From positions 37,680-101,679 of the forward strand of contig JABGXP010000020.1 of the NCBI GenBank assembly GCA_018675685.1: 64,000 bases of DNA, written 5' to 3'. Origin of the DNA: a bacterium. Lineage in GTDB: Bacteria > Patescibacteriota > Minisyncoccia > Moranbacterales > DUUL01. The translations under genes and the position numbers were made by a program. The notes under the pieces were generated by a model, which ran no database searches, was not told the origin of the DNA, and saw nothing but the letters and a program-made list of their open reading frames with translations. Of this stretch, positions 618-38,734 are shown piece by piece (position 1 is the stretch's first letter; the number at the start of each line of letters is the position of its first letter).

Positions 618-1478
618 ATGAAATTTTTAATTTTAGGTGCAATTGACACAGAAAACACAAAAGATCTTGAATTGGAAATTTTAAAAAAAGGTCATGAAGT
701 TGCTAAGGTAAATCCAAAAGATTTCCTCTTCAGTGTTGAGAACAATGAATTTAATATAGCTGCGAGTGGAGTTAATCTTCTTAATTTTGATATATATCTT
801 CTTCGAGGATATAACATTTCCATCACTGAAACTAGGATTTTTGTTGAAAAATTGTTAAGTTTAGGGAAGATTGTAATAGATGAGGTTGTTGGAGAACAAT
901 ATATCCCCAGCAAGCTTTTTGAAGCCAGTTGTCTTTCTCGAGTCGGTTTGAATCACCCAAAAACATTTTCTATTTTAAAAGAGGAATCATTTGATTTATT
1001 TAAAGAAAAACTCGACTACCCAGTAATTGTAAAGCCAGTGGATGGACAGAAAGGACAGGATATGTACAAGTTCGAGTCGGAAGACCAATTAAATATTTTT
1101 ATTAAAAAAAATCAACGTGGCTGGTTGATTCAGGAGTGTTTACCAATAGATGGAGATGTAAGAGTTTTTGTCGTCGGAAGCGAAGTTCTGGGTGCTATTA
1201 AGAGATTTACAGTCGAAGGAGATTTTCGCTCAAATGCATCGCTCGGAGCAAACGCTAAAGAATTCGAATTAACCGAGGAGATAAAAGAAATTGCCCTAAA
1301 AGCCAAGGAGGCAATGAACTGTGAAGTAGCTGGAGTCGATTTGGCCTGGTCTAAAGAGAAGTGGTATGTGATTGAAGTTAATTTTTCCCCACAATGGCAA
1401 AAATTCAAAGAAATAACAGGATTAAACCCTGCTGAAAAAATAATTGAATATGCAATAGGTAAATATAACAATAAATAG
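618..1478 (+). CDS. RimK-family ATP-grasp ligase (alpha-L-glutamate ligase-like)
   Basis: 286 aa with ATP-grasp C-terminal motifs (…DVRVFVVGSEVLGAIKR…GDFRSNASLGANA…YVIEVNFSPQW…GLNPAEKII). Its stop overlaps the next start (TAGATG). Confidence 0.7.
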   Translation: MKFLILGAIDTENTKDLELEILKKGHEVAKVNPKDFLFSVENNEFNIAASGVNLLNFDIYLLRGYNISITETRIFVEKLLSLGKIVIDEVVGEQYIPSKLFEASCLSRVGLNHPKTFSILKEESFDLFKEKLDYPVIVKPVDGQKGQDMYKFESEDQLNIFIKKNQRGWLIQECLPIDGDVRVFVVGSEVLGAIKRFTVEGDFRSNASLGANAKEFELTEEIKEIALKAKEAMNCEVAGVDLAWSKEKWYVIEVNFSPQWQKFKEITGLNPAEKIIEYAIGKYNNK

Positions 1479-2417
1479 ATGAAGAAAAAAATAGGATTTT
1501 TTAAAAAACCGCAGGGAGTTTTTACAGAAGACTTTATTGGAGAAATCAAGGAAACATTAATGAACATTGAAGGGATCGAACTTTTTACAGAGCTTGATTA
1601 TCGAGAAGCATTTGTTAAAAACGGAGAGGTGTATATTGGTGATTTCAATCTAAATCAGCTCGATGTTTATTTTTGGCATGATATTGTCCATGTTAAGTTA
1701 TGGAAAGGGGATAACTACATTTTGAATGTCCTTAGTGCATTGGAAAAAGATTGTGTAGTTGTAAACTCAGTTAAATCCTCGAGAATTGTTAATGACAAAT
1801 ACCTTTCACATCTTGAATTGTTAAAGGCTGGATTGCCAGTTTCAGATTTTTCACTAGTTAATATCAAAAACCGAGATGCAGTAAGAAATGCTTTCAATGG
1901 AATGGGTGGTTCTGTTCTTTTGAAACCACGATACGGGGGTTTTGGGAGTGGAATTGTGAAAATCGACTCAGAAGAAAGATTGTTTGAGGTTTTGGAGTTT
2001 ATGCAAAATTATGTTGAAGCTCCAGATCAGCAGATATTAATGGAACGATTCTATGAAAACGACATTGAAAAGTGGACATCAGTTGTGGTTTTTGGTGACA
2101 AGGTCTTGTTCGGTTATCGAAAAAAAGTACTTGGTGATTCTGATTGGAAAGTTTATGATCCAGAAAGAAAAGACGCAAAGGGTCAATTCACTGATTATGT
2201 GAAAGTCGATGAAGAATTAGCAGTATTAGCGTTGAAGGCGAAAAATGCAATTGGAAAAGATATTATTTGTTTTGACTTTATTCACACCAAAGAGGGTTGG
2301 AAAATTATCGATGAAAACGGTCGGCCAGGATTATATCGACATTGCTTAGAAGCAGCTGGTGTAGATTTAAAAAAAGAAGTTGTGGATTTGATATTGTCAA
2401 AAATCAAGAAAGACTAG
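1479..2417 (+). CDS. ATP-grasp ligase, a divergent RimK/GshB-like paralog
   Basis: 312 aa containing …LLKPRYGGFGSGIVKI… and …VVVFGDKVLFGYRKK…GWKIIDENGRPGLY. It is translationally coupled to the upstream ATP-grasp gene. Confidence 0.6.
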   Translation: MKKKIGFFKKPQGVFTEDFIGEIKETLMNIEGIELFTELDYREAFVKNGEVYIGDFNLNQLDVYFWHDIVHVKLWKGDNYILNVLSALEKDCVVVNSVKSSRIVNDKYLSHLELLKAGLPVSDFSLVNIKNRDAVRNAFNGMGGSVLLKPRYGGFGSGIVKIDSEERLFEVLEFMQNYVEAPDQQILMERFYENDIEKWTSVVVFGDKVLFGYRKKVLGDSDWKVYDPERKDAKGQFTDYVKVDEELAVLALKAKNAIGKDIICFDFIHTKEGWKIIDENGRPGLYRHCLEAAGVDLKKEVVDLILSKIKKD

Positions 2418-2458: not shown

Positions 2459-3337
2459 ATGAAAAGGATGCTTATTATCGTCGAAAACAGTGAAGAAGAA
2501 CAGTATCGTACCCTGAGAATTTTAGAAGAGGCAGAAAAAATGGGCTGCAAAGTTGATCTAATCAATAGCAGCGGAATGAAATTTCTGACAAATAAAGTCT
2601 TTGTCAAAGGAAAAGAACTCTACTTTGAAGAGTATGATGCGATTTATTCAATCGGAAACAGTGATAGACATCACTATTTTATTATGTTAGCAACAATCAA
2701 AACAGGAGTTCGGATTTGGCCTAGCAACAAACATCTTTTAATGAATGACAAGTTTTTCGAAGGAATCTTTTTGGACAATTTAGGAATCAGAACGCCCAAG
2801 ACAATTTTACTAACAAGCAAGGAAAAAGTAGTTGTAGATAAATTAGTAGAAGAAATTGGCGGTTACCCATGTGTTGCAAAGAAGGTTACGGGCTCTGAAG
2901 GAAGATATGTTTGCTTGGTAGAATCTTTTGATGATCTGTATAAATTTCTAGAGAAATTACCACATCCAAGCATTTCAGGAAAGAAAGGCATTCTTTTGCA
3001 AGAATATATAGAAGAATCCAAAGGGACTGATTTTAGGACATATTGCGTTGGTGATGAGATTCTAGGAGCTATTCAAAGAACCTCGCAAACTGATGATTTC
3101 AGAGCTAATGTTTCTTTAGGTGGTGTAGCGGAAAAGATTGAGGTGACAGCTGAAATGGAGGAGTTTTCAAGAAAAATAATGAAAGAAGGAAATTTTTTGT
3201 TTGCTGGAATCGATTTTATTATGAGCAACAGTGGTTTAGTAGCAATTGAAATCAATACATCTGCTGATTTTAAGGGATTTGAAAAAGCCACAGGAATTAA
3301 TGTCGCAGAAAAAATAATCAAAAAGTTTTTAGAATAA
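2459..3337 (+). CDS. RimK-family ATP-grasp ligase (third paralog)
   Basis: 292 aa containing …DFRTYCVGDEILGAIQRTSQTDDFRANVSLGG…VAIEINTSADFKGFEKATGINVAEKII. Confidence 0.65.
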   Translation: MKRMLIIVENSEEEQYRTLRILEEAEKMGCKVDLINSSGMKFLTNKVFVKGKELYFEEYDAIYSIGNSDRHHYFIMLATIKTGVRIWPSNKHLLMNDKFFEGIFLDNLGIRTPKTILLTSKEKVVVDKLVEEIGGYPCVAKKVTGSEGRYVCLVESFDDLYKFLEKLPHPSISGKKGILLQEYIEESKGTDFRTYCVGDEILGAIQRTSQTDDFRANVSLGGVAEKIEVTAEMEEFSRKIMKEGNFLFAGIDFIMSNSGLVAIEINTSADFKGFEKATGINVAEKIIKKFLE

Positions 3338-16657: not shown

Positions 16658-17014
16658 CTACGCAGCTCGGGTAAAAAGTTCCCCCGACTTCTTCAGGACA
16701 CCCCTTTCAGTATGAATTGAGAGGACTTGAGGGTGACCGTTTGAATCAATTTCTTGTTCAGGCAAAAGCTCAACTTTAAAGGCCATAAATGGTCCATCGC
16801 CATAGAACGATTGAGCTTTTTTGATCTCTCCGACCAGTTTCTCAAGGGACGCCATTCTTTTCTTGAAGTAAGTCGTAATATTGTCCCCAGCCACATCTTT
16901 CCGTATTAGAGTGGTTTTCATTTGTTCAAGGCACTCCTGGACGTCAGTTCTGAAATTAACAAAATTTTGTTGTCCAAAAACCTCATACTCATTTTTGTCG
17001 ATTACTTTGCTCAT
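16658..17014 (-). CDS. Hypothetical protein
   Basis: 118-aa ORF with no recognisable motif. Confidence 0.4.
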   Translation of the reverse strand: MSKVIDKNEYEVFGQQNFVNFRTDVQECLEQMKTTLIRKDVAGDNITTYFKKRMASLEKLVGEIKKAQSFYGDGPFMAFKVELLPEQEIDSNGHPQVLSIHTERGVLKKSGELFTRAA

Positions 17015-17176
17015 TTTTGTCTCCTCAAAGCTGCTATTGATTGAAAAAAGTGCTACTCACAGGTGAATATATTAGTATAATGTCATAAATATGTTATTTT
17101 GTCAAGAAAAATAAAAAGAAGCACAGAGCTTCTTTTGGAAAAGTTCAAAATGTTTTTAATTCAACCTCGATGGTTT

Positions 17177-17575
17177 TTAGATTTCAATAAATCCAAAATG
17201 TTTGAGAACTGGTGCAATGTTGGGCGCCACCCCTTCCTTTTCTAGTTTTTCAAGTGAAATCCAATCCCACTCCCGAACTTCTTCACCTGGAACAACCTCA
17301 CCAATCCTTTTCGAGAGAAAATGGACCAAAATCACATCAAGGATACCTTTTGGAGTTTCTTTTTTCGTGTAGAAGAGCAAAGGGTTTTCATCGAGAATTT
17401 CAATCTCGATTCCCAGCTCCTCCTTTGATCTTCTGATAGCAGTTTCAACTAAAGTCTCTCCCTCTTTTTGTTTCCCCCCACAAAACTTCCAAAATCTATC
17501 ATCACCTTGTCTATCAAGGAGTACTTTGTTTTCTTCAACAATGACTGGCCCTGACACAATGATTACTTTTTGCAT
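17177..17575 (-). CDS. Nudix hydrolase (MutT-like)
   Basis: Nudix box GGKQKEGETLVETAIRRSKEELGI. It lies 44 nt downstream of the elp3 homolog on the same strand. Confidence 0.75.
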   Translation of the reverse strand: MQKVIIVSGPVIVEENKVLLDRQGDDRFWKFCGGKQKEGETLVETAIRRSKEELGIEIEILDENPLLFYTKKETPKGILDVILVHFLSKRIGEVVPGEEVREWDWISLEKLEKEGVAPNIAPVLKHFGFIEI

Positions 17576-17618
17576 AGTCTTTGTGTTAATGGTTATGAAA
17601 AATATTTAAAATATTAAA

Positions 17619-19211
17619 TTATAACTTCTTTGTCATATATTCATTTTCAAGTTTATAGTCAAACTTTTTATAATACTCCCTAACCCCAACTCCCGAGATA
17701 ATCGCAATTTTTTCAAAACCAAACTCTTCTTTGCTAATAGACTCTGCTTTTTGAAGAAGCTTTCTCCCAAGACCGATATGTTGAGGTGACGAAGAATCCG
17801 TTTTATCTATTTTAGCAAGTTTTCCAAAAGTATGCACCTCTCGAATAAGAGCACTACCTGAAAGTGCTGGAATTATAGTTTCTAATGGATTGTTTTTTGG
17901 AGGAATACGAAGCCGTAACATAGCATATAGCTTCATTTTGTTTGGCGAAACGTATTGCAGGAAAATTTCTTTTCCCTTTGACGCCTTATAATCAATTCTG
18001 TCTAGAATGATTTTATCCTTTTTTGTAAAATCATCACGAACCTCGCGACAGCGGATGCACTCACAATGCACTTTTTCTTGTTGTAGAATTTGTCTCATAT
18101 TTGAAATATTTGGACCAGCTATAATTGATTCTTCTGGAATATCACGGATGAGACGAGTTATTCTTGTGTATTGTGGAATGATCGGTTTTATTTTTTTAAG
18201 TAACTGTTTGTTTTGAGAGTTAGTCAGTGGTGTATATTTTCCTTGTCTCCAAAGAGAAAAAAGTTCAGAATTGTTAGTAACGACACAAGGATATATCTTT
18301 ATTAGATCTGGAGCGAAGCGTTCATCAGAAAAGAGGGTTTTAAACATCATAAAATCTTTCTTCACATTGCTGCCATACATCCCAGGCATCAAATGATAAT
18401 TAACTTTAAATCCAGCATTCTTTAAAAGAGCAGTTGCCTTGGTCGTTGCTAGCGTGAGATGTCCACGTTTGTTTTTCTTTAAAACATCATCGAAAATAGT
18501 TTGAACACCAATTTCCACTCTTGTTGCACCAAATCTTCTGAATTTCAGAAGTTCTTTAGGTGTAATGAAATCCTGTCTAGTTTCTAAAGTAAGTCCAATG
18601 ATACGATTTTTTGCTTTTTCATTTCTGCTTTTTTCCTTTTCCAGAGAAACGCTTCCTTTTTTTTGTAATGAATTGCGCGGAAAATCGTTAGCTGCTCGGA
18701 AGCACTCTTTGATGAACCAAGATTGATATTGCGGAGGAAAGTGAGAAAATGTTCCTCCCATCACTATCAATTCGAGCTTATCAGTAGAGTGTCCATTAAG
18801 AGATAGCGCTCGCATTCTCGCATGCACTTGCTTGTATGGGTGAAAGCTTGTTTTAATGGCTCGCATCACAGCTGGCTCATTCGAAAGATAACTTTTCGGC
18901 ATGTTTTTTTCAGAGGGGCAGTAGATGCATTTTCCAGGACAGCTACTCGGCTTTGTTAAAACCGCAATAACCGCAACTCCTGACAGAGTGCGAATTTTTT
19001 TTGTAATAAGTAGTTTTCTGAGTGTTTCATTGGATCGCACTTCTCCTTTTTTGATCATTTCAAAATACACCTTATTAATTTCGGCATTTTTAATGAAAAC
19101 CTCCTTTTCTTCGATTGCGAATTCCTTCTTAATTTTCTCCAAAGATTTAATATCCGACAAAGGCGCGGAGAGAGCTTTCAAAATAAACTTTTTTATGTTA
19201 GATTTCTTCAT
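17619..19211 (-). CDS. elp3: Elp3-family radical-SAM/GNAT tRNA uridine(34) acetyltransferase homolog
   Basis: Radical-SAM Cys cluster CPGKCIYCP. Strong similarity to the eukaryotic/archaeal Elp3 core (…EPAVMRAIKTSFHPYKQVHARMRALSLNGHSTDKLELIVMGGTF…). C-terminal GNAT acetyltransferase domain. 530 aa. Confidence 0.8.
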   Translation of the reverse strand: MKKSNIKKFILKALSAPLSDIKSLEKIKKEFAIEEKEVFIKNAEINKVYFEMIKKGEVRSNETLRKLLITKKIRTLSGVAVIAVLTKPSSCPGKCIYCPSEKNMPKSYLSNEPAVMRAIKTSFHPYKQVHARMRALSLNGHSTDKLELIVMGGTFSHFPPQYQSWFIKECFRAANDFPRNSLQKKGSVSLEKEKSRNEKAKNRIIGLTLETRQDFITPKELLKFRRFGATRVEIGVQTIFDDVLKKNKRGHLTLATTKATALLKNAGFKVNYHLMPGMYGSNVKKDFMMFKTLFSDERFAPDLIKIYPCVVTNNSELFSLWRQGKYTPLTNSQNKQLLKKIKPIIPQYTRITRLIRDIPEESIIAGPNISNMRQILQQEKVHCECIRCREVRDDFTKKDKIILDRIDYKASKGKEIFLQYVSPNKMKLYAMLRLRIPPKNNPLETIIPALSGSALIREVHTFGKLAKIDKTDSSSPQHIGLGRKLLQKAESISKEEFGFEKIAIISGVGVREYYKKFDYKLENEYMTKKL

Positions 19212-19240
19212 AGAGACATTGAATAGATTAAGTAAAGAAA

Positions 19241-19933
19241 ATGAATAAACATTCTGAAATTAGAAAGGAGTTGAGAAAGTTTTATGATCAGGTGGCTGAA
19301 AATTTTTCAAGCACCAGGAAATATTGGTGGAGAGACCTTCACTTTATCAAAAAATATTTAAAAAGGGAAGGGAAGGTGCTAGATTTTGGCTGCGGAAATG
19401 GGCGGTTGCTGGATTTTCTCGAAGGAACAAAATTGAACTATACAGGAATTGACGCCTCAGGAAAATTAATTAAAATAGCTCAAAAAAAATATCCAGGCAA
19501 ATCTTTTTTGCAAATCGAAAATGAAGGGAGATTACCCTTTAAAGATAAAGAGTTTGACATGATTTTTTCCATCGCTGTTTTCCATCACTTTACACCAAAA
19601 ATGGCTGACAATGCCTTGGGAGAAATGAAAAGAATTTTGAAAGATGACGGAATTTTGATTTTAACAATTTGGAATCTTTGGAATGTGAAATATTTGAAAT
19701 TTCTATTCAAAAGTTTTTTAAAGGGAAGCATCAACTTGGCTGCAAGGATATCTTTTAAATACCAAGATCAGATTAAATGGAGATTTTGTTATTGGTGGAC
19801 GAAAAGGGGGATTTTGAAAAAAATGAATAATTTTGAATTTAAAATTATTGAGAGTGGTTTTACGTTTGGTCAAAAGAAGAAAACAAAAGAGAAGTTCAAG
19901 CGAAATATCTTTATTGTGGCAGGGAAAAAGTAG
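19241..19933 (+). CDS. Class I SAM-dependent methyltransferase (Methyltransf_11-like)
   Basis: Motif I VLDFGCGNGRLLDFL and a post-I acidic residue. It is divergently transcribed from elp3. Confidence 0.7.
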   Translation: MNKHSEIRKELRKFYDQVAENFSSTRKYWWRDLHFIKKYLKREGKVLDFGCGNGRLLDFLEGTKLNYTGIDASGKLIKIAQKKYPGKSFLQIENEGRLPFKDKEFDMIFSIAVFHHFTPKMADNALGEMKRILKDDGILILTIWNLWNVKYLKFLFKSFLKGSINLAARISFKYQDQIKWRFCYWWTKRGILKKMNNFEFKIIESGFTFGQKKKTKEKFKRNIFIVAGKK

Positions 19934-20112: not shown

Positions 20113-21435
20113 GTGCAATTAGCAAAACCAAGAGTACTAATGTTTGGCTGGGAATTTCCACCGTATAGTGTGGGGGGTCTTGGTGTTGCCTGTCATGGAC
20201 TAACTAAGAGTATGGTGAGGCTTGGAATGAAAGTTACTTTTGTTGTTCCAAGGGCACCAAGAGGCGCAAAAAGTCATTTCCTAAACTTATTGGTTGCTGA
20301 CAGAGTGAGTGTTGGAAGAGAAGATGTTGATAGAATTGAAGGATTAAAAATAGAGAAAGTCGATTCGCTTTTAATGCCTTATATGAATTCTACAAAGTAC
20401 AGTTCTTTGGTAGAGTATCTAAAGAAGCGAGGGGGAACCATCGATAATTTCATATATTCAAGTGACTCAGGAAATTTTGATTCAAAGGATCAATATGGTG
20501 TTAATCTATTCGAGGAAGTTTGGAGATATGCTAATAAAGCTGCTATAATAGCCAAAAAAGAGGTTTTCGATGTGATTCATGTTCATGATTGGATGACATT
20601 TAGAGCGGGAATCGTGGCGAAGGAAGTTAGCGGTAAGCCGTTGGTCGTCCATATTCATAACACAGCGTTTGATCGGAGTGGCGGAAATCCTGGGCAACGT
20701 GAGTATGAAATTGAAAAAGAGGGTTTTGAGAAGGCAGATAAAATAATTGCAATAAGCCATCATGTCAAAAGTAGACTGATCGAACAATATGAGGTTAGTC
20801 CAGAGAAAATTATTGTCGCACATAATGGAATTGATTCCGAGGATTATTGCTTTAAATCTTCCGAGAGGCATATCCATAACAAAATTGTTTTGTATGCCGG
20901 AAGGGTAACCCTGCAAAAAGGACCAGAATGTTTTGTCAAAGCAGCTGCAAAAATTTCTGAAATCAGAGACGATGTAACCTTTATTCTAGCGGGTGGCGGA
21001 GATATGTTGTCGGATATGATCGAACTTGCAGCACATTTGAAAATTTCAGATAGATTTGTTTTCACAGATTGGTATAATAAGAGTGAAGGTGAGGCAGTGA
21101 TGAATATGGCTGATGTTTTTGTGATGCCTTCTGTTTCAGAGCCATTCGGACTCGTTCCTTTAGAGGCAATGTTACAAAGAACTCCCACGATAATCTCAAA
21201 GCAATCTGGAGTGAGTGAGGTCCTAGTGAATACGTTAAAAGTTGATTTTTGGGATATTGATGAAATGGCGAATAAAATAGTGTCAGTTCTAGATCATAAC
21301 TCCCTAAAAACACATTTAATTGAAATGGGAGAGAAGGAGGCAAAAGCTATGACCTGGGATAAGGCAGCTTTTGAGTGCCGAAGAGTTTTCGAGAAGTTGA
21401 TATTTGAATATAAAATGTCAGAACATTATTACTAA
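20113..21435 (+). CDS. Glycogen/alpha-glucan synthase-like glycosyltransferase (archaeal-type, GT4/GT5-like)
   Basis: The N-terminus …FGWEFPPYSVGGLGVACHGL… resembles the Pyrococcus-type glycogen synthase. C-terminal E-x7-E region (…SEPFGLVPLEAM…). Confidence 0.6.
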   Translation: MQLAKPRVLMFGWEFPPYSVGGLGVACHGLTKSMVRLGMKVTFVVPRAPRGAKSHFLNLLVADRVSVGREDVDRIEGLKIEKVDSLLMPYMNSTKYSSLVEYLKKRGGTIDNFIYSSDSGNFDSKDQYGVNLFEEVWRYANKAAIIAKKEVFDVIHVHDWMTFRAGIVAKEVSGKPLVVHIHNTAFDRSGGNPGQREYEIEKEGFEKADKIIAISHHVKSRLIEQYEVSPEKIIVAHNGIDSEDYCFKSSERHIHNKIVLYAGRVTLQKGPECFVKAAAKISEIRDDVTFILAGGGDMLSDMIELAAHLKISDRFVFTDWYNKSEGEAVMNMADVFVMPSVSEPFGLVPLEAMLQRTPTIISKQSGVSEVLVNTLKVDFWDIDEMANKIVSVLDHNSLKTHLIEMGEKEAKAMTWDKAAFECRRVFEKLIFEYKMSEHYY

Positions 21436-21456
21436 TTAATTTGATTAAAAGAGAAA

Positions 21457-22668
21457 ATGCCTAATATTTGTTTCTATTTTCAAGTGCATCAACCATATAG
21501 AGTCAAAAACTACAAAGTTTTTGATATTGGTAAGGATCATAACTATTTCAACGATGCCTCTGAAGGTAATCTAAATAATAGCTGGATTATTCAGAAAGTT
21601 GCTAGAAAATGCTATTTACCAACAAATAAAATTCTTTTGAATTTATTAAACAGACATCCTGATTTCAGAATAAGCTTTTCTTTTTCTGGGGTTTATCTGG
21701 ATCAGCTGGAGCAGTTTGCACCAAATGTTTTAAGGTCATTTCAAGAACTAGTTGCAACTGGAAGAGCAGAGGTTTTAAGCGAAACATATTATCATTCCTT
21801 AGCCTTCTTGTATTCCCAGGAAGAATTCATTTATCAAGTCGAGAAACATAAAGAAAAAATAGTTAGCTTATTTGGAGTTGTCCCAACGGTTTTTCGTAAT
21901 ACGGAATTAATATACAACAATGACTTGGCAAGAAAAGTTGAATCAATGGGCTACAAGGGTATAATAGCTGAGGGGGCTGAAAAAGTATTGGACTGGAAAA
22001 GTCCCAATTTTCTCTATGAAGCTGCTGGATGCGATAATTTGAAATTACTATTGAAAAACTATAAATTATCTGATGATATCGCATTTCGCTTCTCTGATCA
22101 TAACTGGGCAGAGCATCCATTGTCAGCAAGAACTTTTGCAGATTGGATTTCTGAACACAACGGCAGTGGTGAATTAATCAATCTTTTTATGGATTATGAA
22201 ACATTCGGTGAACATCAATGGGAGGATTCAGGAATCTTTGATTTTCTAGGCCATTTACCAGAGTTTGTATTGCAGAATCCATCAAACGGCTTTATGACAC
22301 CAAGCGAAGCAATTGAAAAACTTGAGAGTAAAGGCAAAATAGATTTTTTTGATTTTATTTCCTGGGCAGATGAAGAAAGAGATCTTTCTGCTTGGCGCTC
22401 AAATGCATTGCAAACAGATGCTTTAGAAAAAGTCTATGCACTAGAAAAGGATGTTCTCAATACTCAAAACGAAGGAATCATTGATGACTGGAGAAAGCTG
22501 CAGACCTCAGACCATTTTTATTATATGTGTACCAAGTATTTTGCTGATGGTGATGTTCATAAATATTTCAATCCATATGAGACGCCTCATGATGCCTTTA
22601 TAGCTTTCATGAATGCACTAAATGATATGAAAATAAGAATTGGTCAAAACTCTCCAGTAAAAGCCTAA
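21457..22668 (+). CDS. Glycoside hydrolase family 57 protein (alpha-amylase/4-alpha-glucanotransferase-like)
   Basis: N-terminal …FYFQVHQPYR… GH57 signature. 403 aa. Confidence 0.6.
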   Translation: MPNICFYFQVHQPYRVKNYKVFDIGKDHNYFNDASEGNLNNSWIIQKVARKCYLPTNKILLNLLNRHPDFRISFSFSGVYLDQLEQFAPNVLRSFQELVATGRAEVLSETYYHSLAFLYSQEEFIYQVEKHKEKIVSLFGVVPTVFRNTELIYNNDLARKVESMGYKGIIAEGAEKVLDWKSPNFLYEAAGCDNLKLLLKNYKLSDDIAFRFSDHNWAEHPLSARTFADWISEHNGSGELINLFMDYETFGEHQWEDSGIFDFLGHLPEFVLQNPSNGFMTPSEAIEKLESKGKIDFFDFISWADEERDLSAWRSNALQTDALEKVYALEKDVLNTQNEGIIDDWRKLQTSDHFYYMCTKYFADGDVHKYFNPYETPHDAFIAFMNALNDMKIRIGQNSPVKA

Positions 22669-22718
22669 AAAAGAGCAGTGAACTTAAATTAATATATATA
22701 AATCTTATAAAAACAAAA

Positions 22719-23096
22719 ATGAATCTATTTAAACAACTTATTGTCAACAACGAGGATGAGGAAGCTGCAAATGAGGAGGCAGTGAAAGAGTCTGTAGCTA
22801 AAACTCACAAAGACAGCGAAAATACAGTTGAGGTTAAGAAAATAAAAGCTTTCGATACATCTCCAAACGAAGATTTTTGGTTTCATTATGGACCAGTAGT
22901 GAAGAATCTTGCAGAGTTAAGGGATGCTCTTTTGCGCATTGATGATGACCTTTATAATTATCATGCAAAAGGGGAAGAGAATGATTTTGCGAGGTGGGTG
23001 GGCGATGTTTTTGGATACAAAGACTTGGCAAGTAAGATTGAAAAAGCTAAAACAAGAAAAAAAGCATATAAAATTTTGGATGATGCAGTGGAGTAA
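22719..23096 (+). CDS. Hypothetical protein within the glucan cluster
   Basis: 125 aa with no recognisable motif. Confidence 0.4.
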   Translation: MNLFKQLIVNNEDEEAANEEAVKESVAKTHKDSENTVEVKKIKAFDTSPNEDFWFHYGPVVKNLAELRDALLRIDDDLYNYHAKGEENDFARWVGDVFGYKDLASKIEKAKTRKKAYKILDDAVE

Positions 23097-23175
23097 TCTC
23101 TGCTTTGAAATTAGCAGTTATGACGCTTTGTGGTTTCAGGTGAAACAAAAAAATAAGTTTTGAAATAAAATAAAA

Positions 23176-25137
23176 ATGCCAAAATCTCTCGTATTAGGTA
23201 ATGGAAATATGCTATTATGCTTTGACAACAAAGCCCGTGTTCGTGATTTCTATTATCACTATGTTGGATTAGAGAATCATGCAGGAAGTGGTTGTGTGCA
23301 TAGAATAGGGATTATGATTGATGGTGATTTTTCTTGGATTGAGGAGGCTGCTTGGAAAGTAACTATGGATTATCAAACGGACTCACTTGTTTCCAAGGTG
23401 GAAATGGTTAACAAGGAGCTTGGCATCAAACTTGATTTTAAGGACACTGTTTATAACGAGAAGTGTATTTTTTTAAGAAATGTGACGATCAGCAATCTTT
23501 GGGACGAAAAACGAAAAATAAAATTATTTTTTCATCAGCAATTTAGAATATATGATACAGAGAGAAGGGACACTGGTTACTATGACCCTGAAGAAGAAGT
23601 TATTATTCATTACGAGGGAAGAAGGGTCTTTATAGTAGGCGGAAGACAAGGAAATACAAGTTTTGATGACTATTGCATTGGAAACTATGGAATTGAAGGC
23701 AAAATAGGAACATGGAAAGATGCAGAGGATGGTGAGCTAGAGAAGAACCCTATTGAGCATGGACCAGTTGATTCAGTAATAGCATTCACATTCGAAATAG
23801 AAGGACATAAAAAGAAAGTTGTTGACTATTGGATTAGTGCTGCCAAAATTTTGGCAGAGGCGAGGAAATTACATCAATATGTTTTAACAAGGACGGCAAA
23901 TCACCTCCTTGAATCAACAGAGGACTATTGGAGTGCTTGGGTAAACAAGAATAATCTGGATTTCAAGGATATGAATAAGGAGTCTGTCGACTTATTCAAA
24001 AAATCATTATTAATAATTCGAACGCACATAGGAAATGAAGGTGGAATTATAGCATCAGCTGATTCTGATATGTTGCAATATGGTCGTGACACATATGCAT
24101 ATGTATGGCCAAGAGACGGAGCGTTCGTTGCGCTGTCTTTGATAAAAGCTAAATACCATACAATCCCTAGAAAGTTTTTTGAATTTTGCAATGACGTGAT
24201 TTCGGAAGAGGGGTATTTTTTTCATAAATACAGAAGCGATAAATCGGTTGGAAGCTCTTGGCATCCTTGGTCTAAGGAGGGGAAGAAGCAGCTTGCCATC
24301 CAAGAGGATGAAACAGCTTTAATTATATTCTCACTTTGGGAATATTATCAGGCAAGTTTGAATATAGAGTTTATCGAAAGTGTCTATAATTCACTAATAA
24401 AGAAGGCAGCGGAGTTTATGTATCACTATCGTGATAAAAGAACCGGATTACCAAAGGAAAGTTATGACCCTTGGGAGCAAAAATATGGAATATCTACTTT
24501 TACTTGCAGTACGGTATATGGGGGACTTTTAGCAGCGAGTAAATTTGCAAAAGTTCTTGGAAAAGAAGAGGACGCAAAGAAATACCTACATGAAGCAGAG
24601 GAGATAAAATCCCTAACAGTGAAGTATCTATATAACAGTGATAATGGATATTTCTACAACAGAATAATGCCCAATAAAGAGGGGTTTGGGTTTGATAATA
24701 CAATTGACATCAGTAGTTTCTTCGGTTTATTCTATTTTGATATTCTGGATATTAACGATACCATGTTAGATGATGTTTTTGATGTTGTTGAAAGAGAACT
24801 CTTTTGCAAGACCAAAGTTGGTGGAGTCATGAGGTATGTTGGTGATGAATATCACAGAGTTGATGATGATGCCCCTGGAAATCCTTGGATTATAACAACT
24901 CTTTGGGTCGCACAATATCGAATTAAAAAAGCCAAGACACTAGACGCTCTAGAGGAGGTTAAAAAAACTTTTGAGTGGGTCTCTGCGCAAACAACTAACG
25001 CTGGACTACTCCCAGAACAAATTAGTTCAGATAAAGGGGAACACCTTTCAGCAGCTCCGCTCACCTGGAGTCATGCCGAATATGTTACAACTGTCATGCA
25101 ATACTTAGAAAGAAAAAAAGAATTAGAAAATAAATAG
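23176..25137 (+). CDS. GH15-family glucoamylase/glucodextranase-like protein
   Basis: …GIIASADSDMLQYGRDTYAYVWPRDGAFVALSL… matches the GH15 catalytic-domain signature. 653 aa. Confidence 0.65.
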   Translation: MPKSLVLGNGNMLLCFDNKARVRDFYYHYVGLENHAGSGCVHRIGIMIDGDFSWIEEAAWKVTMDYQTDSLVSKVEMVNKELGIKLDFKDTVYNEKCIFLRNVTISNLWDEKRKIKLFFHQQFRIYDTERRDTGYYDPEEEVIIHYEGRRVFIVGGRQGNTSFDDYCIGNYGIEGKIGTWKDAEDGELEKNPIEHGPVDSVIAFTFEIEGHKKKVVDYWISAAKILAEARKLHQYVLTRTANHLLESTEDYWSAWVNKNNLDFKDMNKESVDLFKKSLLIIRTHIGNEGGIIASADSDMLQYGRDTYAYVWPRDGAFVALSLIKAKYHTIPRKFFEFCNDVISEEGYFFHKYRSDKSVGSSWHPWSKEGKKQLAIQEDETALIIFSLWEYYQASLNIEFIESVYNSLIKKAAEFMYHYRDKRTGLPKESYDPWEQKYGISTFTCSTVYGGLLAASKFAKVLGKEEDAKKYLHEAEEIKSLTVKYLYNSDNGYFYNRIMPNKEGFGFDNTIDISSFFGLFYFDILDINDTMLDDVFDVVERELFCKTKVGGVMRYVGDEYHRVDDDAPGNPWIITTLWVAQYRIKKAKTLDALEEVKKTFEWVSAQTTNAGLLPEQISSDKGEHLSAAPLTWSHAEYVTTVMQYLERKKELENK

Positions 25138-29629: not shown

Positions 29630-32600
29630 ATGAAAAAAGGAAAGATTGCCCCAAGATATGACTTTGCGAAAATTGAAAAGAAATGGCAAAAAATTTGGCA
29701 AGAAAAGAAACTTTTCGAAATCAAGCTTGACGGTGCAAAAAAACCTTTTTATAACTTGATGATGTTTCCATACCCCTCAGCTGAAGGATTGCATGTGGGC
29801 GGCGTCTATACATACACAGGAGTTGATACCTTCGGACGCTTCAAGAGAATGCAAGGGTATGATGTGTTTGAGCCAATCGGATTAGATGGGTTTGGGATTC
29901 ATAGTGAGAACTATGCAATGAAAATCGGAGAACATATAGACGAGGTTTCGAAGAGAACGGAGAAGAATTTTTACAGGCAGCTAGGTTCAATTGGAAATAT
30001 GTTTGATTGGTCACGGACTGTGGAAACCTATAAACCAGAGTATTATCGCTGGACCCAATGGATATTCCTTCAGATGTTTAAGAAAGGTTTAGCATATCAA
30101 AAGAAAGCAAAAGTTAATTGGTGTCCTTCTTGTAAAACCGTTCTTTCGGATGAACAGGTGATTCAGGGACAATGTGAGAGATGTGACAGTTTTGTTGATA
30201 AACGAGAATTAAAACAATGGTTTTTTCGGATCACAAAATATGCTGATCGACTTTTGAAAAATTTGGACTGGATCGATTGGCCTGAGGATGTAAAAACAAA
30301 TCAGCGAAACTGGATTGGGCGAAGCGAAGGTGCGAATATTAAGTTTAAAGTTGAATATACTGGGGAAGAAAAGAGCGAATTAGAAGTTTTTACAACAAGA
30401 CCTGACACACTTTTTGGTGCAACATACATGGTGCTTGCGCCAGAGCATGAGCTTGTAAATAAAGCAAGGGAAGCTATTGAAAATTTTGATGAAGTCGAGA
30501 GGTATGCAAAGAAGGCGATCAGTAAGTCAGAGCAGGAAAGGAAGAACGATGAAAAAACTAAAACAGGAGTTGAATTGAAAGGTGTTTCGGCTATAAATCC
30601 TGTTAACGGTGATAAAATCCCAGTTTGGGTCGCTGACTATGTTTTGGCGGGCTATGGAACAGGAGCGATTATGGCAGTCCCAGCTCATGACCAGAGAGAT
30701 TTCGAATTTGCAAATAAATTTGGAATTGAGATTAGGCAAGTTGTGGCACCTTATTTTCCAGCTAAAAAAACAAGTGATCTTCCTGTTAGAGAGGACAGAA
30801 AAACCGTTAAAAGAAATGTCGTTTATGGAGTTGTTAAAAACCCAAAGACAGGGAAATTTTTAATGATTAGCTGGAAAGATTATCCAGGAAAGTCTTTTAT
30901 TATTGGTGGTGCTAAAGATAATGAAGATATAATAAATGCAGCTAGGCGCGAAGTCACGGAAGAGACTGGATATGCAAACTTGAAATTCGTTAAAAAATCT
31001 CAATTTGAAATCCACGCAAGTTATTTTGCTGTGCATAAAGATGAAAACCGATATGGAGTCATTAATTGGGTTTATTTTGAACTAGCAGATGAGACTAAGA
31101 AAGAAATTAAGAAGGAAGACGAAGGTAAGCATAAAATTTTCTGGGTCAAAGAAAAGGAAGTTGATAAAGAACTACCATATACGAATTATCATTATGCCTG
31201 GAAGACGCTTACTTCAGGAAAGGAGTGTGCTACTGACAATGGAATCATGATTAATTCCGGATTTTTAGATGGACTAAAAACTGATGAAGCTAAAACTAAA
31301 ATACTTAAGTGGCTTGAGAAAGAAAAAGTTGGGAAAAAATCAATCGATTTCAAATTACGAGATTGGTGTGTTTCTCGTCAAAGGTATTGGGGGCCTCCGA
31401 TTCCAATCGTATGGTGCAAGGAATGTGCGAAAAAGGAGAATAAAACAAAAGTTCTGTTTCTCCATGGTTTTGAAGGTAACGGTGAGTGTAATTGGTTTCC
31501 TGAATTAAAAAAGAAGTTAGAAAAAGCAGGTTGTGAAGTTTTTTCACCAACAATGCCATCACCTGAAAGTCCAAAATTCGAAGAGTGGATGAATGAAATC
31601 AAGGTCTACATGGACAAAATGGGAGAAAATGACGTGATTGTTGGTCACAGTCTTGGTTCTGGAGCTGCCATGCACTATCTTGGGCGAACAAATCAGAAAC
31701 TAAAAAAAGTATTTTTAGTTGCCGCCGCTGTTGGAGATGGTCCGCGAAGAGACTGGGACGCACTACGAAAAGCATGGCCAACTGCTGATGTTGATTCGTT
31801 AGAAAAGTTCTGGAAACATAAAATTGACTGGAAGTCAGTTAATAAAAGTGTCTTAAAAGAGACTAGGGTGATTTTCTCAAAAGACGATCCGTATATTGAC
31901 CCAGAACACTACAAACTTGTTGATTTGGATGATGTTGTTTTGGAAAAATGGGATGGATTAAAACACTTTATCACTGCTAGTTGTCCAAAACTAACTGACT
32001 ACATTACGGAGAATATCGTGGGAGATATTAGTCCTGTTGCAGTTCCTGTTCCAGACGAAAGTTTACCAGTCGAATTACCGCCAATGGAAAATTTTCTTCC
32101 CGAAGGAACTGGAAAGGGACCTTTGGCGCGGAACGAAGAGTTTGTGAAAACAACTTGTCCGGTTTGTGGCGCGGAGGCTGAAAGAGAAACTGATGTTTCA
32201 GATCCATTTGTAGACTCATCATGGTACTTTTTTCGATATCCATCAACTGAGTTCAATGACAATGCTTTTGATCCAGAGCGAACGAAAAAGTGGCTTCCAG
32301 TAGACAGTTATATTGGTGGAAAAGAACACACTGTGTTGCATTTACTCTATTCACGGTTTGTAACTATGGTTTTCAAGGATTTGGGGCTTATTGATTTTGA
32401 GGAGCCGTATAAAAGATTTTTTGGGCATGGACTTATCACAAAAGAAGGAGCGAAAATGTCGAAATCAAAGGGAAATGTTGTCAATCCAGATGATATGATT
32501 GAAAAATATGGTGCAGATACAACAAGAATGTATTTGAGATTTTTAGGAGACTTTTCACAAGGAGGGGATTGGAGAGACTCTGGCGTAGAGGGGATGAGCA

Positions 32601-33133
32601 AATTTGTAAAGAAGTTGTGGACTCTTTTTTCTGAGCTCAAAGGAGAAGGTGTTGGTCTAGGAAATCTTTCGATGATTGATAAAACGGTAAAGGTTGTTGG
32701 TGAAGACTTAGAAAGACTTTCATTTAACACAGCAGTCGCAAGACTTATGGAATTCACAAATTGGGCGAAGGAAAATAAAGCCGTTTTCAATAAAGAAGAA
32801 GCGGCGCAAGTGAGGAAAGTAATGGCACTCGTTTTTTCACCAATGATGCCTCATCTCGCAGAAGAATTTTGGGAAAAAATTGGAGGAAAAGATTCTGTTT
32901 GTAATCAATCTTGGCCAAAATATAATAAAGAGAATATTATTGATAGCGAAATCGAACTCGTAGTGCAGGTCAATGGGAAACTTCGAGATAAAGTTGTAGT
33001 TTCAAAGGATGTCAAAGAGGAAGAAGCTAAAAAATTAGCGCTTGAAAGTGAAAATGTACAAAAGTTCATAGAGCAAAAAGAGATAAAAAAAGTGATATAT
33101 GTTATCGGAAAACTTGTTAATATTGTTGTATAG
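29630..33133 (+). CDS. leuS: Leucyl-tRNA synthetase carrying two inserted domains: a Nudix hydrolase and an RBBP9/YdeN-like serine hydrolase
   Basis: LeuS core motifs are present: PYPSAEGLHVGG, the CP1 editing domain (TTRPDTLFG…GTGAIMAVPAHDQRDFEF), RDWCVSRQRYWGPPIPI, the zinc-knuckle CKEC…CPVC, DSSWYF and KMSKS. The protein is 1167 aa, compared with about 800–880 for typical bacterial LeuS. It has a Nudix box GGAKDNEDIINAARREVTEETGY and a GHSLG serine-hydrolase elbow. Confidence 0.9.
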   Translation: MKKGKIAPRYDFAKIEKKWQKIWQEKKLFEIKLDGAKKPFYNLMMFPYPSAEGLHVGGVYTYTGVDTFGRFKRMQGYDVFEPIGLDGFGIHSENYAMKIGEHIDEVSKRTEKNFYRQLGSIGNMFDWSRTVETYKPEYYRWTQWIFLQMFKKGLAYQKKAKVNWCPSCKTVLSDEQVIQGQCERCDSFVDKRELKQWFFRITKYADRLLKNLDWIDWPEDVKTNQRNWIGRSEGANIKFKVEYTGEEKSELEVFTTRPDTLFGATYMVLAPEHELVNKAREAIENFDEVERYAKKAISKSEQERKNDEKTKTGVELKGVSAINPVNGDKIPVWVADYVLAGYGTGAIMAVPAHDQRDFEFANKFGIEIRQVVAPYFPAKKTSDLPVREDRKTVKRNVVYGVVKNPKTGKFLMISWKDYPGKSFIIGGAKDNEDIINAARREVTEETGYANLKFVKKSQFEIHASYFAVHKDENRYGVINWVYFELADETKKEIKKEDEGKHKIFWVKEKEVDKELPYTNYHYAWKTLTSGKECATDNGIMINSGFLDGLKTDEAKTKILKWLEKEKVGKKSIDFKLRDWCVSRQRYWGPPIPIVWCKECAKKENKTKVLFLHGFEGNGECNWFPELKKKLEKAGCEVFSPTMPSPESPKFEEWMNEIKVYMDKMGENDVIVGHSLGSGAAMHYLGRTNQKLKKVFLVAAAVGDGPRRDWDALRKAWPTADVDSLEKFWKHKIDWKSVNKSVLKETRVIFSKDDPYIDPEHYKLVDLDDVVLEKWDGLKHFITASCPKLTDYITENIVGDISPVAVPVPDESLPVELPPMENFLPEGTGKGPLARNEEFVKTTCPVCGAEAERETDVSDPFVDSSWYFFRYPSTEFNDNAFDPERTKKWLPVDSYIGGKEHTVLHLLYSRFVTMVFKDLGLIDFEEPYKRFFGHGLITKEGAKMSKSKGNVVNPDDMIEKYGADTTRMYLRFLGDFSQGGDWRDSGVEGMSKFVKKLWTLFSELKGEGVGLGNLSMIDKTVKVVGEDLERLSFNTAVARLMEFTNWAKENKAVFNKEEAAQVRKVMALVFSPMMPHLAEEFWEKIGGKDSVCNQSWPKYNKENIIDSEIELVVQVNGKLRDKVVVSKDVKEEEAKKLALESENVQKFIEQKEIKKVIYVIGKLVNIVV

Positions 33134-36484: not shown

Positions 36485-38734
36485 ATGCATAAGACGATTT
36501 ATATCGACATAGACGAAGAAATAACCAGTGTTTTGGATAAAATAAGAGACGAAAAATCTAGTGAGATTTGCATTGTTGTTCCGAAGAACGCAGCCTTGAC
36601 ACAGGGAATTATCAATTTGAAATTGTTGAAAAAAGAGTCGGCTAAGTACGGAAAAACAATAGTAATCGCAACTAACGATCCCCAGGCTAGGAAAGTTATC
36701 AAGCGCCTTGAAATAAAAACACAAGAGATTGCAGAAACTGATTTGAAAGGGAGTAGCGAGTTAAAGAAAGTCGAAAAGACTGAAAAGGAAACTGAGCCAA
36801 TGGAAATCCAAGAGGAAGCAAACAATCAAACTGAAGAACTCAAAGGTGAAATCAAGATGACAAAAGAAGAATTTGTGACCAGCGATATAGGTTCAGAGAC
36901 ATTTTTTGATGGAATTATTCCGGAGCCAATCATTGATGATAAAAAGGAGAACAATATCAAAAGTGATATTAAAAAACAAGAACCAAATTTAATCTCACCG
37001 AATGAATTGCGCGAAGAATTATATCCCAGAAAAACAGATTTTAAGAATGAAAAAGTTCCACAGATAAAGCAGAAAAAAAATAAAGAGACCGTTTCTGCAA
37101 GTTTGGAAGAGATGTCTGATTTGAAGCCAGTAACAACCGTTGATAAACAAAACGACCTAATAAAAAGAGTTGATACAATGGACAGACAAGCTAAAACTGT
37201 CAGAAAAATCACTCCTTCAGAAGGGAAGAATTCTTCCGAAGCAAACCCAGCCATGAAAACAATTCCAAGAGGAGGCAAAACAGTTGTTTCTCGTTCAGTC
37301 GACTTTGGAGATAAAATGCAAGAATCAAAAAAAGGTCCAAGTAACGGAAGAGTATTAGCTACCAGTTTTGATTTGCAGAAGCAATCGTCCGAGGGAGGAG
37401 ATTTCAAGGTAACAGAAGAGCTCAATTTAAAAAGCTTTGATGAAGAAACTTCGAAGAAAGCAGAAGAATTTTTTGGAATAGAGCCCAAGAAACCAAAGGA
37501 GTCCATAAAAGAGATGAAAAAACAAGTAAAGAGGGTTGAGAAGGAAATTGTCCAGTCAAAAAACCAAAAGGGATTTATAAGGCGCTGGGGATTTGCTATT
37601 ATGATAGCCTTTTCATTTGTTGGAATTGGTGGTTTTACTGCTTGGGGGTATATGAATTATCCACAGGCTGAAATTAAAATTCATCCAAGAAAGAAAGATT
37701 TTTCTAAAGAGATTAAAATTTCAGTCAAAGAAGGCGCAGATAAAAGCGGCTTTGAGAAAGGTGTTATTCCAGGGCAATACAAGGAAATGACAGTTCAAAA
37801 GACAATGAAGTTCAATGCTACTGGTGAGACCTACGCGACTGATGATGGAAAAGCAAAAGGAAAAGTTACTATATATAATAAGTATTCAAAAAAAGAACAA
37901 CCCCTTGTTGCGACTACAAGAGTTCTCTCTAAAGAAGGTAAGCTGTTTAGACTTATTAAGGGCGTTACAGTTCCGGGAATGGAAAATGATAATCCTGGCA
38001 CAGTCGAAGCCGCTGTGATTGCTGATAAGCCAGGGGAGGAGTTTAATATCGGTTCTTCCGCTTTTACGATTGAGGGATTTAAGGGGAAACCACAGTATGA
38101 TAAATTTGAAGTGAAATCTTTCGAACCAATGACAGATGGAGGTTCTCCGGATTCAAACAAGAAATTATCCATGATCTCGATAGCTGATATCGCAAGGGCT
38201 CGTGAAAAAACAATTACAGCTTTAGAAAAAAGTCTTGAAGAAGAAGTGAAAGCCCAATTAGGAGTTGAAATGAGTGCGATGTTTGACTCAGTTGAAAAAG
38301 AAATTATAGGAGCTTCTTCTACTAATGAGGTCAAGGATGTCGTGAAAAGTTTTTCATACACTGTTGAGCAAAAAATTAAATTGATTACTTTTCTGACAGC
38401 AGATGTTAATTCAGCCGTACTTCTTGGCATGAGACAGGATGTTGAAGATGGCTATGAAATAGAAGAGTCTGAAAGTAATGTTACTTTCAAAAAAAGTATC
38501 ACTGATCTTGAAAAGAAAACAATGACGATGTATCTAGATTCCTCAGCCACAGCTTGGCCAATAATCGAAGCGGAGCAGTTAGCGCAAAGTATTGCTGAGA
38601 AAAAGGAAGAAGAAATTCGTGTTATCTTGCTAGGATATCCCACAATTGAAAAAATTGAATTTTTAGTGAAACCGTCCTGGTTAACAGGTCTGCCAATTTC
38701 AAAGGACAAGATTGATGTTTCAGTTGTGAAATAG
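36485..38734 (+). CDS. Hypothetical large bitopic membrane protein (cytoplasmic N-terminal domain, one TM helix, large extracytoplasmic C-terminal domain)
   Basis: 749 aa. One hydrophobic helix (…FAIMIAFSFVGIGGFTAWGY…). It lies immediately downstream of the ftsA-like gene. Confidence 0.45.
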   Translation: MHKTIYIDIDEEITSVLDKIRDEKSSEICIVVPKNAALTQGIINLKLLKKESAKYGKTIVIATNDPQARKVIKRLEIKTQEIAETDLKGSSELKKVEKTEKETEPMEIQEEANNQTEELKGEIKMTKEEFVTSDIGSETFFDGIIPEPIIDDKKENNIKSDIKKQEPNLISPNELREELYPRKTDFKNEKVPQIKQKKNKETVSASLEEMSDLKPVTTVDKQNDLIKRVDTMDRQAKTVRKITPSEGKNSSEANPAMKTIPRGGKTVVSRSVDFGDKMQESKKGPSNGRVLATSFDLQKQSSEGGDFKVTEELNLKSFDEETSKKAEEFFGIEPKKPKESIKEMKKQVKRVEKEIVQSKNQKGFIRRWGFAIMIAFSFVGIGGFTAWGYMNYPQAEIKIHPRKKDFSKEIKISVKEGADKSGFEKGVIPGQYKEMTVQKTMKFNATGETYATDDGKAKGKVTIYNKYSKKEQPLVATTRVLSKEGKLFRLIKGVTVPGMENDNPGTVEAAVIADKPGEEFNIGSSAFTIEGFKGKPQYDKFEVKSFEPMTDGGSPDSNKKLSMISIADIARAREKTITALEKSLEEEVKAQLGVEMSAMFDSVEKEIIGASSTNEVKDVVKSFSYTVEQKIKLITFLTADVNSAVLLGMRQDVEDGYEIEESESNVTFKKSITDLEKKTMTMYLDSSATAWPIIEAEQLAQSIAEKKEEEIRVILLGYPTIEKIEFLVKPSWLTGLPISKDKIDVSVVK

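Follow-up and report, generated by a model that had tools for sequence, protein, structure and literature searches.

A Trm9-type methyltransferase encoded beside elp3 in Patescibacteria: a probable two-enzyme wobble-uridine pathway of eukaryotic and archaeal type

What modified wobble uridine might a bacterium make with an elp3 gene that stands back to back with a gene for a methyltransferase? The question arises from a 64,000-nucleotide (nt) stretch of DNA from an ultrasmall patescibacterium (contig JABGXP010000020.1 of assembly GCA_018675685.1, positions 37,680 to 101,679), hereafter the window, in which the two genes diverge from a short spacer and a Nudix hydrolase gene follows elp3. Eukaryotes and Haloferax are known to follow a route from Elp3 to Trm9, and an Elp3–Trm9 gene cluster has been noted in Sulfolobus (PMC6144793). 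Bacterial Elp3 is likewise on record: the D. mccartyi enzyme (DmcElp3) has been called “a rare example,” and Elp3 has been placed in “some bacterial clades” and in “numerous bacteria.” As for the methyltransferase, a 2017 review of Trm112 stated that genes resembling the eukaryotic Trm112-dependent methyltransferases were not detectable in bacteria, and that Trm9 orthologues are limited in their archaeal distribution (PMC5372719). A literature search turned up no described bacterial Trm9, nor the phrase “bacterial Trm9” itself; it likewise returned nothing that combines Elp3 with the Candidate Phyla Radiation (CPR), and nothing that links MnmE/MnmG to the CPR.

The first-pass annotation of the window had proposed that the pair could form a minimal bacterial pathway leading through 5-carboxymethyluridine (cm5U) to 5-methoxycarbonylmethyluridine (mcm5U) at tRNA position 34. 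Family memberships, conserved active-site residues and gene linkage all support this proposal, and from them we infer what each enzyme does, which tRNAs it acts on and which nucleoside results. The locus thus probably encodes a two-enzyme, eukaryotic/archaeal-type wobble-uridine pathway, in which Elp3 would produce cm5U34 and a Trm9-type methyltransferase would convert it to mcm5U34. Its two principal genes are as follows.

17619..19211, minus strand: elp3, predicted radical-SAM/GNAT tRNA U34 carboxymethyl (cm5U) synthase of 530 amino acids (aa), matching TIGR01211
19241..19933, plus strand: gene for a putative Trm9-type class I S-adenosylmethionine (SAM) methyltransferase of 230 aa, matching Methyltransf_11 with 75.7 bits

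That the 530-aa open reading frame (ORF) specifies Elp3 rather than a generic radical-SAM protein, as its CPGKCIYCP and LIVMGGTF motifs had suggested, is borne out by profile comparison. It scores 549.9 bits on TIGR01211 (E 5.2e-165; curated cutoff 350), with residues 18–530 covering positions 11–522 of the 522-position model, that is, its full length. The second-best radical-SAM family, MnmL/YtqA, reaches 56.5 bits, approximately 10-fold less. In an alignment with 14 relatives, the [4Fe-4S] cysteine triad C91-x3-C95-x2-C98, the zinc cysteines C383, C385, and C388 of the linker, and the acetyl-CoA motif Q477-H478-x-G480-L481-G482 (QHxGLG, where x is I here) are all invariant. The latter motif upholds the C-terminal GNAT/KAT domain read earlier from the sequence, as does an alignment with the archaeal M. 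infernus enzyme (MinElp3) that extends to the last residue; Pfam PF00583 itself was not matched in a Pfam scan. Taken as a sequence, the Elp3 at this locus is an intact, full-length member of its family, and an identical protein has already been deposited at NCBI under the name Elp3 (MBT3356267.1).

Among proteins of known structure, the window Elp3 scores best with MinElp3 (402 bits), followed by DmcElp3 (PDB 5L7J; 389 bits), which is likewise a bacterial, stand-alone Elp3; both have been characterized biochemically. The archaeal enzyme, a single subunit, resembles the window protein in having a zinc motif and, at its N terminus, a basic extension. In the window Elp3 this extension is lysine-rich and about 70 aa long, with 20 lysines and arginines against 10 aspartates and glutamates in residues 1–75. 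Such a basic extension confers tRNA affinity on archaeal Elp3 and is absent from DmcElp3 (PMC6367351); consistent with this, the DmcElp3 alignment begins at residue 71 of the window protein. The three-cysteine zinc motif is in turn a bacterial and archaeal trait without counterpart in eukaryotic Elp3 (PMC6367351).

Elp3 had been described as sporadic in bacteria, a view that fails inside the Patescibacteria. A pattern scan in which each GTDB species was represented by one genome yielded confirmed Elp3-encoding stretches in at least 580 species genomes, and the best 80 of these (43–78% identity), used below as species loci, all come from CPR assemblies, spanning the Moran-, Parcu-, and Paceibacteria and the Falkow-, Kuenen-, Buchanan-, Portnoy-, and Berkelbacteria. 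The relatives of all three proteins, Nudix included, are found in metagenome-assembled genomes of Patescibacteria/CPR. The host of the window is itself a bacterium, because the window encodes LepA, a class A penicillin-binding protein (PBP1), GroEL, an FtsA-like protein, and an RpoA bearing the bacterial alpha C-terminal domain.

Is the divergent neighbor a Trm9, or simply one of many enzymes that share its fold? Pfam places the 230-aa protein in generic class I families alone, with the motif VLDFGCGNGRL in evidence as first reported, and an NCBIfam scan found no model above its cutoff. Public databases name it “methyltransferase domain-containing protein” or, at the Joint Genome Institute (JGI), “UbiE,” while one relative was labeled TRM9 by the JGI pipeline. 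The UbiE label, a score of 34.5 bits on Pfam Ubie_methyltran (cutoff 20.1), and a fold common among class I methyltransferases would all suit an unrelated housekeeping enzyme, UbiE/MenG-like or other, that neighbors elp3 by chance. The UbiE/MenG identity was nevertheless rejected, as the protein falls far short of both dedicated models (TIGR01934, 54.5 bits vs. a cutoff of 158.35; PRK00216, 47.7 vs. 216). In addition, Patescibacteria are reportedly marked by an ancestral absence of electron transport chains, to go by the title of a paper, and would then have little need of a quinone methylase.

The similarity to Trm9 goes beyond the shared fold that had been recognized at the outset. A single-sequence search of the PDB ranked Yarrowia Trm9 (chain 5cm2_Z) fourth among solved structures. 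With a profile built from 45 family members, the same chain rose to first place (85.7 bits, E 2.7e-23) in a nearly full-length alignment that runs from the N-terminal TR motif through the C-terminal N. In the printed profile alignment, the FSxTR, HH, and W motifs are missing from the runner-up, the uncharacterized methyltransferase PH0226. Comparison of the family with 18 fungal Trm9 sequences by hhalign gave a probability of 99.93% (E 3.3e-36) over 206 columns. In the opposite direction, a fungal Trm9 hidden Markov model (HMM) was run over every ORF of 60 aa or more from the window and from 160 related loci. It matched a single window ORF, the methyltransferase (69.1 bits); in the loci it matched 137 ORFs (45–116 bits), which constitute the family adjoining elp3; in the whole PDB, the fungal Trm9 profile gave its best non-Trm9 chain 41.5 bits, PH0226 37.7, and the Methanosarcina protein 3sm3 31.8. 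An AlphaFold (AF2) model of the methyltransferase (predicted local distance difference test score, pLDDT, 93.7) also retrieved Trm9 as its top PDB match in Foldseek (E 5.4e-15, target template-modeling score, TM, 0.81). The family comprises 1,039 clusters at 50% identity (E ≤ 1e-30), and the best 150 of these contain no fusions, all being stand-alone proteins close to 230 aa long. Reciprocal profiles, together with the active-site residues and gene context described below, mark the methyltransferase as specifically of Trm9 type, insofar as sequence defines that type.

The active site provides the finest test of this assignment. In yeast Trm9, alanine substitution of R29, D72, H116, W145, W168, R241, Y243, or N271 abolishes or strongly lowers activity (Létoquart et al., PMC4678810). 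The accompanying model puts R29, H116, R241, and Y18 next to the carboxylate of cm5U, sets N271 and H115 on its uracil ring, and has W145 and W168 stacking on bases (PMC4678810). The corresponding positions were counted in 136 family ORFs, representing 128 clusters at 90% identity.

Yeast R29, window R26: kept in 136/136
Yeast D72, window D71: kept in 136/136
Yeast H116, window H116: kept in 135/136
Yeast W145, window W144: kept in 136/136
Yeast W168, window F172 (F or W): kept in 134/136
Yeast R241, window R181: kept in 134/136
Yeast N271, window N222: kept in 127/127
Yeast Y18, window Y15: kept in 133/136
Yeast H115, window H115: kept in 128/136
Yeast Y243, window C183: not kept (H in 77, Y in 24, C in 14)

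Seven of the eight residues essential in yeast are therefore near-invariant across the bacterial family. By analogy with the yeast model, R26, H116, R181, and Y15 of the window protein would position the cm5 carboxylate, N222 and H115 would read the uracil ring, and W144 and F172 would stack on bases. The residues conserved outside the Rossmann core, namely FSxTR, HH, W144, R181, and N222, are specific to Trm9. Their retention speaks against a generic housekeeping methyltransferase, as does the lack of such motifs in PH0226.

Gene linkage was assessed from two directions, in a total of 160 related loci. The first set comprised the 80 species loci, genomic loci chosen by Elp3 match, of which 75 were informative and five carried too little upstream DNA. 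In 54/75, elp3 and the methyltransferase gene stand directly divergent, across Elp3 identities of 43–78%; 46 of these emerged from automatic calling, and in the other eight the ORF start was over-extended. The methyltransferase gene is divergent but 0.7–2.9 kb away in five further loci, and lies several kb off on the other side of elp3 in four or five. The second set consisted of 80 metagenome loci picked by the methyltransferase profile alone (35–55% identity), again with 75 informative and five too short upstream. Here, elp3 is directly divergent in 69 and 1.5–2 kb away in three, placing it within 2 kb in 72/75; three loci are without elp3. No other neighbor of the window's pair is conserved among the related loci, so the two genes have been kept together while their surroundings changed. 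Since the pairing recurs in most of 160 independent loci whose other neighbors are not conserved, it is far beyond chance. Linkage (54/75 and 72/75) is the line of evidence that supports functional coupling of the methyltransferase to Elp3 here. Being reciprocal and near-obligate, it also leaves a housekeeping enzyme stranded beside elp3 by accident very unlikely.

Among the next commonest neighbors of elp3 in the 80 species loci are genes for serine hydroxymethyltransferase (SHMT; 24 loci) and FolD (20), and RlmN-like radical-SAM genes lie near elp3 in 11; these may reflect lineage synteny. In the window, the methyltransferase gene is flanked by an alpha-glucan gene set (20113..25137, plus strand) encoding a GT4/starch-synthase-like glycosyltransferase, a GH57 enzyme, a 125-aa ORF, and a GH15 glucoamylase-like enzyme, and this glycosyltransferase/alpha-glucan neighbor is kept in the closest relative only (locus L006).

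Taken together, a simple two-step scheme can be envisaged. In the first step, judged by the family to which it belongs, the stand-alone Elp3 would draw on its radical-SAM domain and on acetyl-CoA seated in its GNAT domain to place a carboxymethyl group on C5 of U34, yielding cm5U34. In the second, for which orthology, the conserved catalytic residues, and gene linkage all argue, the methyltransferase would esterify the cm5 carboxylate in a SAM-dependent manner, yielding mcm5U34. The C5 position of the wobble uridine is also the target of the bacterial MnmE/MnmG system, which makes xm5U34, and of CmoM, which converts uridine 5-oxyacetic acid (cmo5U) to its methyl ester (mcmo5U). CmoM is itself a Methyltransf_11-type enzyme that methylates a carboxymethyl side chain. 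The enzymes and chemistry of these systems are nevertheless unrelated to the window pair, and none of their genes occurs among the larger ORFs of the window, nor does MnmA. Because the methyltransferase is linked to Elp3, its substrate would be cm5U rather than cmo5U.

Could the two enzymes act instead on a protein, a small molecule, or some other substrate that is not tRNA? Elp3 was once proposed to be a protein acetyltransferase, and the tRNA and Rfam scans of the 64-kb window found no RNA gene, hence no tRNA gene beside the pair. On the other hand, bacterial, archaeal, and eukaryotic Elp3 enzymes hydrolyze acetyl-CoA solely in response to tRNA (PMC6367351), and the methyltransferase retains the asparagine and histidine with which Trm9 reads uracil. 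A non-tRNA substrate is accordingly regarded as extremely improbable.

The proposed mcm5U34 pathway is best appreciated against its known counterparts. Eukaryotic Elongator and Trm9–Trm112 (S. cerevisiae and Y. lipolytica; PDB 5CM2) have the two catalytic families in common with the window, whose methyltransferase aligns with fungal Trm9 over nearly its full length and retains seven of the eight essential residues. The eukaryotic machinery, however, also includes Elp1, Elp2, Elp4, Elp5, Elp6, and Trm112, no genes for which lie near the window pair, and its Elp3 is without the three-cysteine zinc motif (PMC6367351). The archaea offer a further counterpart. In H. volcanii (HVO_1032), Trm9–Trm112 makes mcm5U (PMC6144793). 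The window differs from the archaeal pair in its bacterial host and in the fact that Haloferax Trm9 needs Trm112, which was not seen at the window locus.

Several observations weigh against a bacterial Trm9 that makes mcm5U. To our knowledge, mcm5U has not been reported in bacteria. In the family-profile search of the PDB, PH0226 followed close behind Trm9 (80.6 vs. 85.7 bits). The Foldseek margin was negligible, the uncharacterized Methanosarcina methyltransferase 3sm3 scoring E 6.5e-15 against 5.4e-15. The essential Y243 of yeast is a cysteine in the window protein and is not conserved in the family as a whole. Among the species loci, 11/75 have no methyltransferase in the fetched flanks. 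Finally, a weak, local test (phmmer, queried with YcaR of E. coli and Trm112 of yeast) returned no Trm112-like ORF from the window or the 160 loci. Given that eukaryotic and Haloferax Trm9 require Trm112 (PMC4678810; PMC6144793), either the bacterial methyltransferase is independent of this partner or the partner is encoded elsewhere in the genome.

The residues that would face Trm112 bear on this last choice. V59 and F78 of Trm9 help to form the hydrophobic core where the two proteins of the Yarrowia Trm9–Trm112 complex meet. Across 18 fungal Trm9 sequences, the V59 position is I, V, or L in all 18, and the F78 position is mostly F, Y, or W. The bacterial family instead carries K, R, or N at the former in 109/136 and E, D, N, or K at the latter in 111/136, an alignment that is reliable because both positions adjoin invariant motifs. 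This exchange of hydrophobic contacts for polar or charged ones suggests a methyltransferase that works alone, without Trm112. The window protein further differs from eukaryotic Trm9 in its length of only 230 aa and in having none of the fungal insertions, and the bacterial family does not keep the Y243 of yeast.

The remaining features of the locus concern its expression and its third gene.

19212..19240: spacer between the divergent start codons of elp3 and the methyltransferase gene, 29 bp, read directly
17177..17575, minus strand: Nudix hydrolase gene, 132 aa, PF00293 62.9 bits
17114..17136, minus strand: terminator-like hairpin with T-run about 40 nt past the Nudix stop, from a pattern scan

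All three ORFs were recovered exactly where the first-pass annotation had placed them. With no more than 29 bp between the ATG codons of elp3 and the methyltransferase gene, which lie on opposite strands, an overlapping control region is probably common to both genes. A sigma-70 promoter scan detected no consensus site inside the spacer, and the window was not enriched over shuffled sequence. The Nudix gene is indeed present downstream of elp3, although the gap is 43 nt rather than the 44 given before. The hairpin, a consensus match with a 9-bp stem, a 5-nt loop, and the tail TATTTTTCTT, likely marks the end of the elp3–nudix transcript. From the 43-nt gap, the shared strand, and the hairpin and T-run after the Nudix stop, elp3 and nudix are probably co-transcribed as a two-gene unit. 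Beyond the terminator lies a 118-aa ORF (16658..17014, minus strand), with a promoter-like site at 17105..17077 (minus strand); in the other loci this ORF does not recur near elp3.

Does the Nudix protein belong to the pathway? A homologue lies downstream of elp3 on the same strand in 24/80 species loci and 45/160 loci overall, often at a distance of 5–120 bp and sometimes of 1–2.4 kb. Alignment shows a well-conserved family of its own, with the motifs ASGPVI, WKFCGG, LVHFLAKR, and APNI. The MutT equivalog was rejected (TIGR00586, 35.2 bits vs. a cutoff of 97.9), leaving the generic Nudix fold. In MutT, the glutamate that follows the Nudix-box arginine (REUxEE) is catalytic. The equivalent residue is R in about half of the Elp3-linked Nudix family, including the window protein (RRSKEELGI), and E in the rest, for which reason substrate or mechanism may differ from that of MutT. 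The link to elp3 is lineage-restricted and confined to a subset of loci, and the Nudix protein is not counted as an established pathway member.

A Nudix of this kind nevertheless lends some color to a variant in which Elp3 and the methyltransferase do act on U34 and the end product is another one, or mcm5U is an intermediate on the way to, for example, its 2-thio form (mcm5s2U) or a novel derivative, with the Nudix protein taking part. In its favor, the Nudix gene, where present (45/160), is always downstream of elp3 on the same strand and often within 5–120 bp; its product forms a conserved family distinct from MutT; the Y243 position is not conserved in the methyltransferase; and in Haloferax, cm5U is quickly turned into other products (PMC6144793). 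This variant is held to be unlikely. The residues with which Trm9 grips the cm5 carboxylate and the uracil ring hardly vary, approximately 70% of elp3 loci have no Nudix gene, and the larger ORFs of the window include no thiolation gene. Conversion of cm5U34 to mcm5U34 thus stays the probable outcome.

A second Nudix domain occurs elsewhere in the window. The leucyl-tRNA synthetase (LeuRS; 29630..33133, plus strand; 1167 aa) carries two inserted domains: a Nudix insert at residues ~395–516 (PF00293, 41 bits), after the editing domain, and a Ser_hydrolase/alpha-beta hydrolase insert at residues ~609–760 (PF06821, 54 bits), after the WCVSRQRYWG motif. A specific relation between the LeuRS insert and the Elp3-linked Nudix was considered and rejected (E 0.088). 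Other contents of the window include three consecutive RimK-like ATP-grasp genes (618..1478, 1479..2417, and 2459..3337, plus strand) and a gene for an RtcB RNA/tRNA ligase (54576..56066, minus strand) inside a block of glycosyltransferase and polysaccharide-export genes. Three ORFs have no Pfam match: 36485..38734 (plus strand, 749 aa), 50522..52390 (minus strand, 622 aa), and the 118-aa ORF mentioned above.

What is new here is a bacterial Trm9-type enzyme, so identified from its sequence, placed in an otherwise known pathway, with independence of Trm112 as a plausible variant feature. Such a family contradicts the published statement of the Trm112 review (PMC5372719). It is large and nearly always found beside elp3, and would add Bacteria to the known range of the mcm5U pathway. 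It also permits correction of annotations, its members now being labeled generically or as “UbiE.” A compact and probably partner-free Trm9 would moreover serve structural and mechanistic work. More tentatively, and with a somewhat less than even chance in our estimation, mcm5U34 decoding by a stand-alone Elp3 and a Trm112-independent Trm9 might be a group-wide trait of the Patescibacteria, possibly replacing MnmE/MnmG and joined in some lineages by the Nudix protein as a third component. If true, this would give Bacteria a first mcm5U pathway and, with it, a naturally activator-free Trm9. The finding also bears on how decoding is maintained in the genome-reduced bacteria of the CPR, and on whether they inherited the Elp3 route from their ancestors or gained it from archaea.

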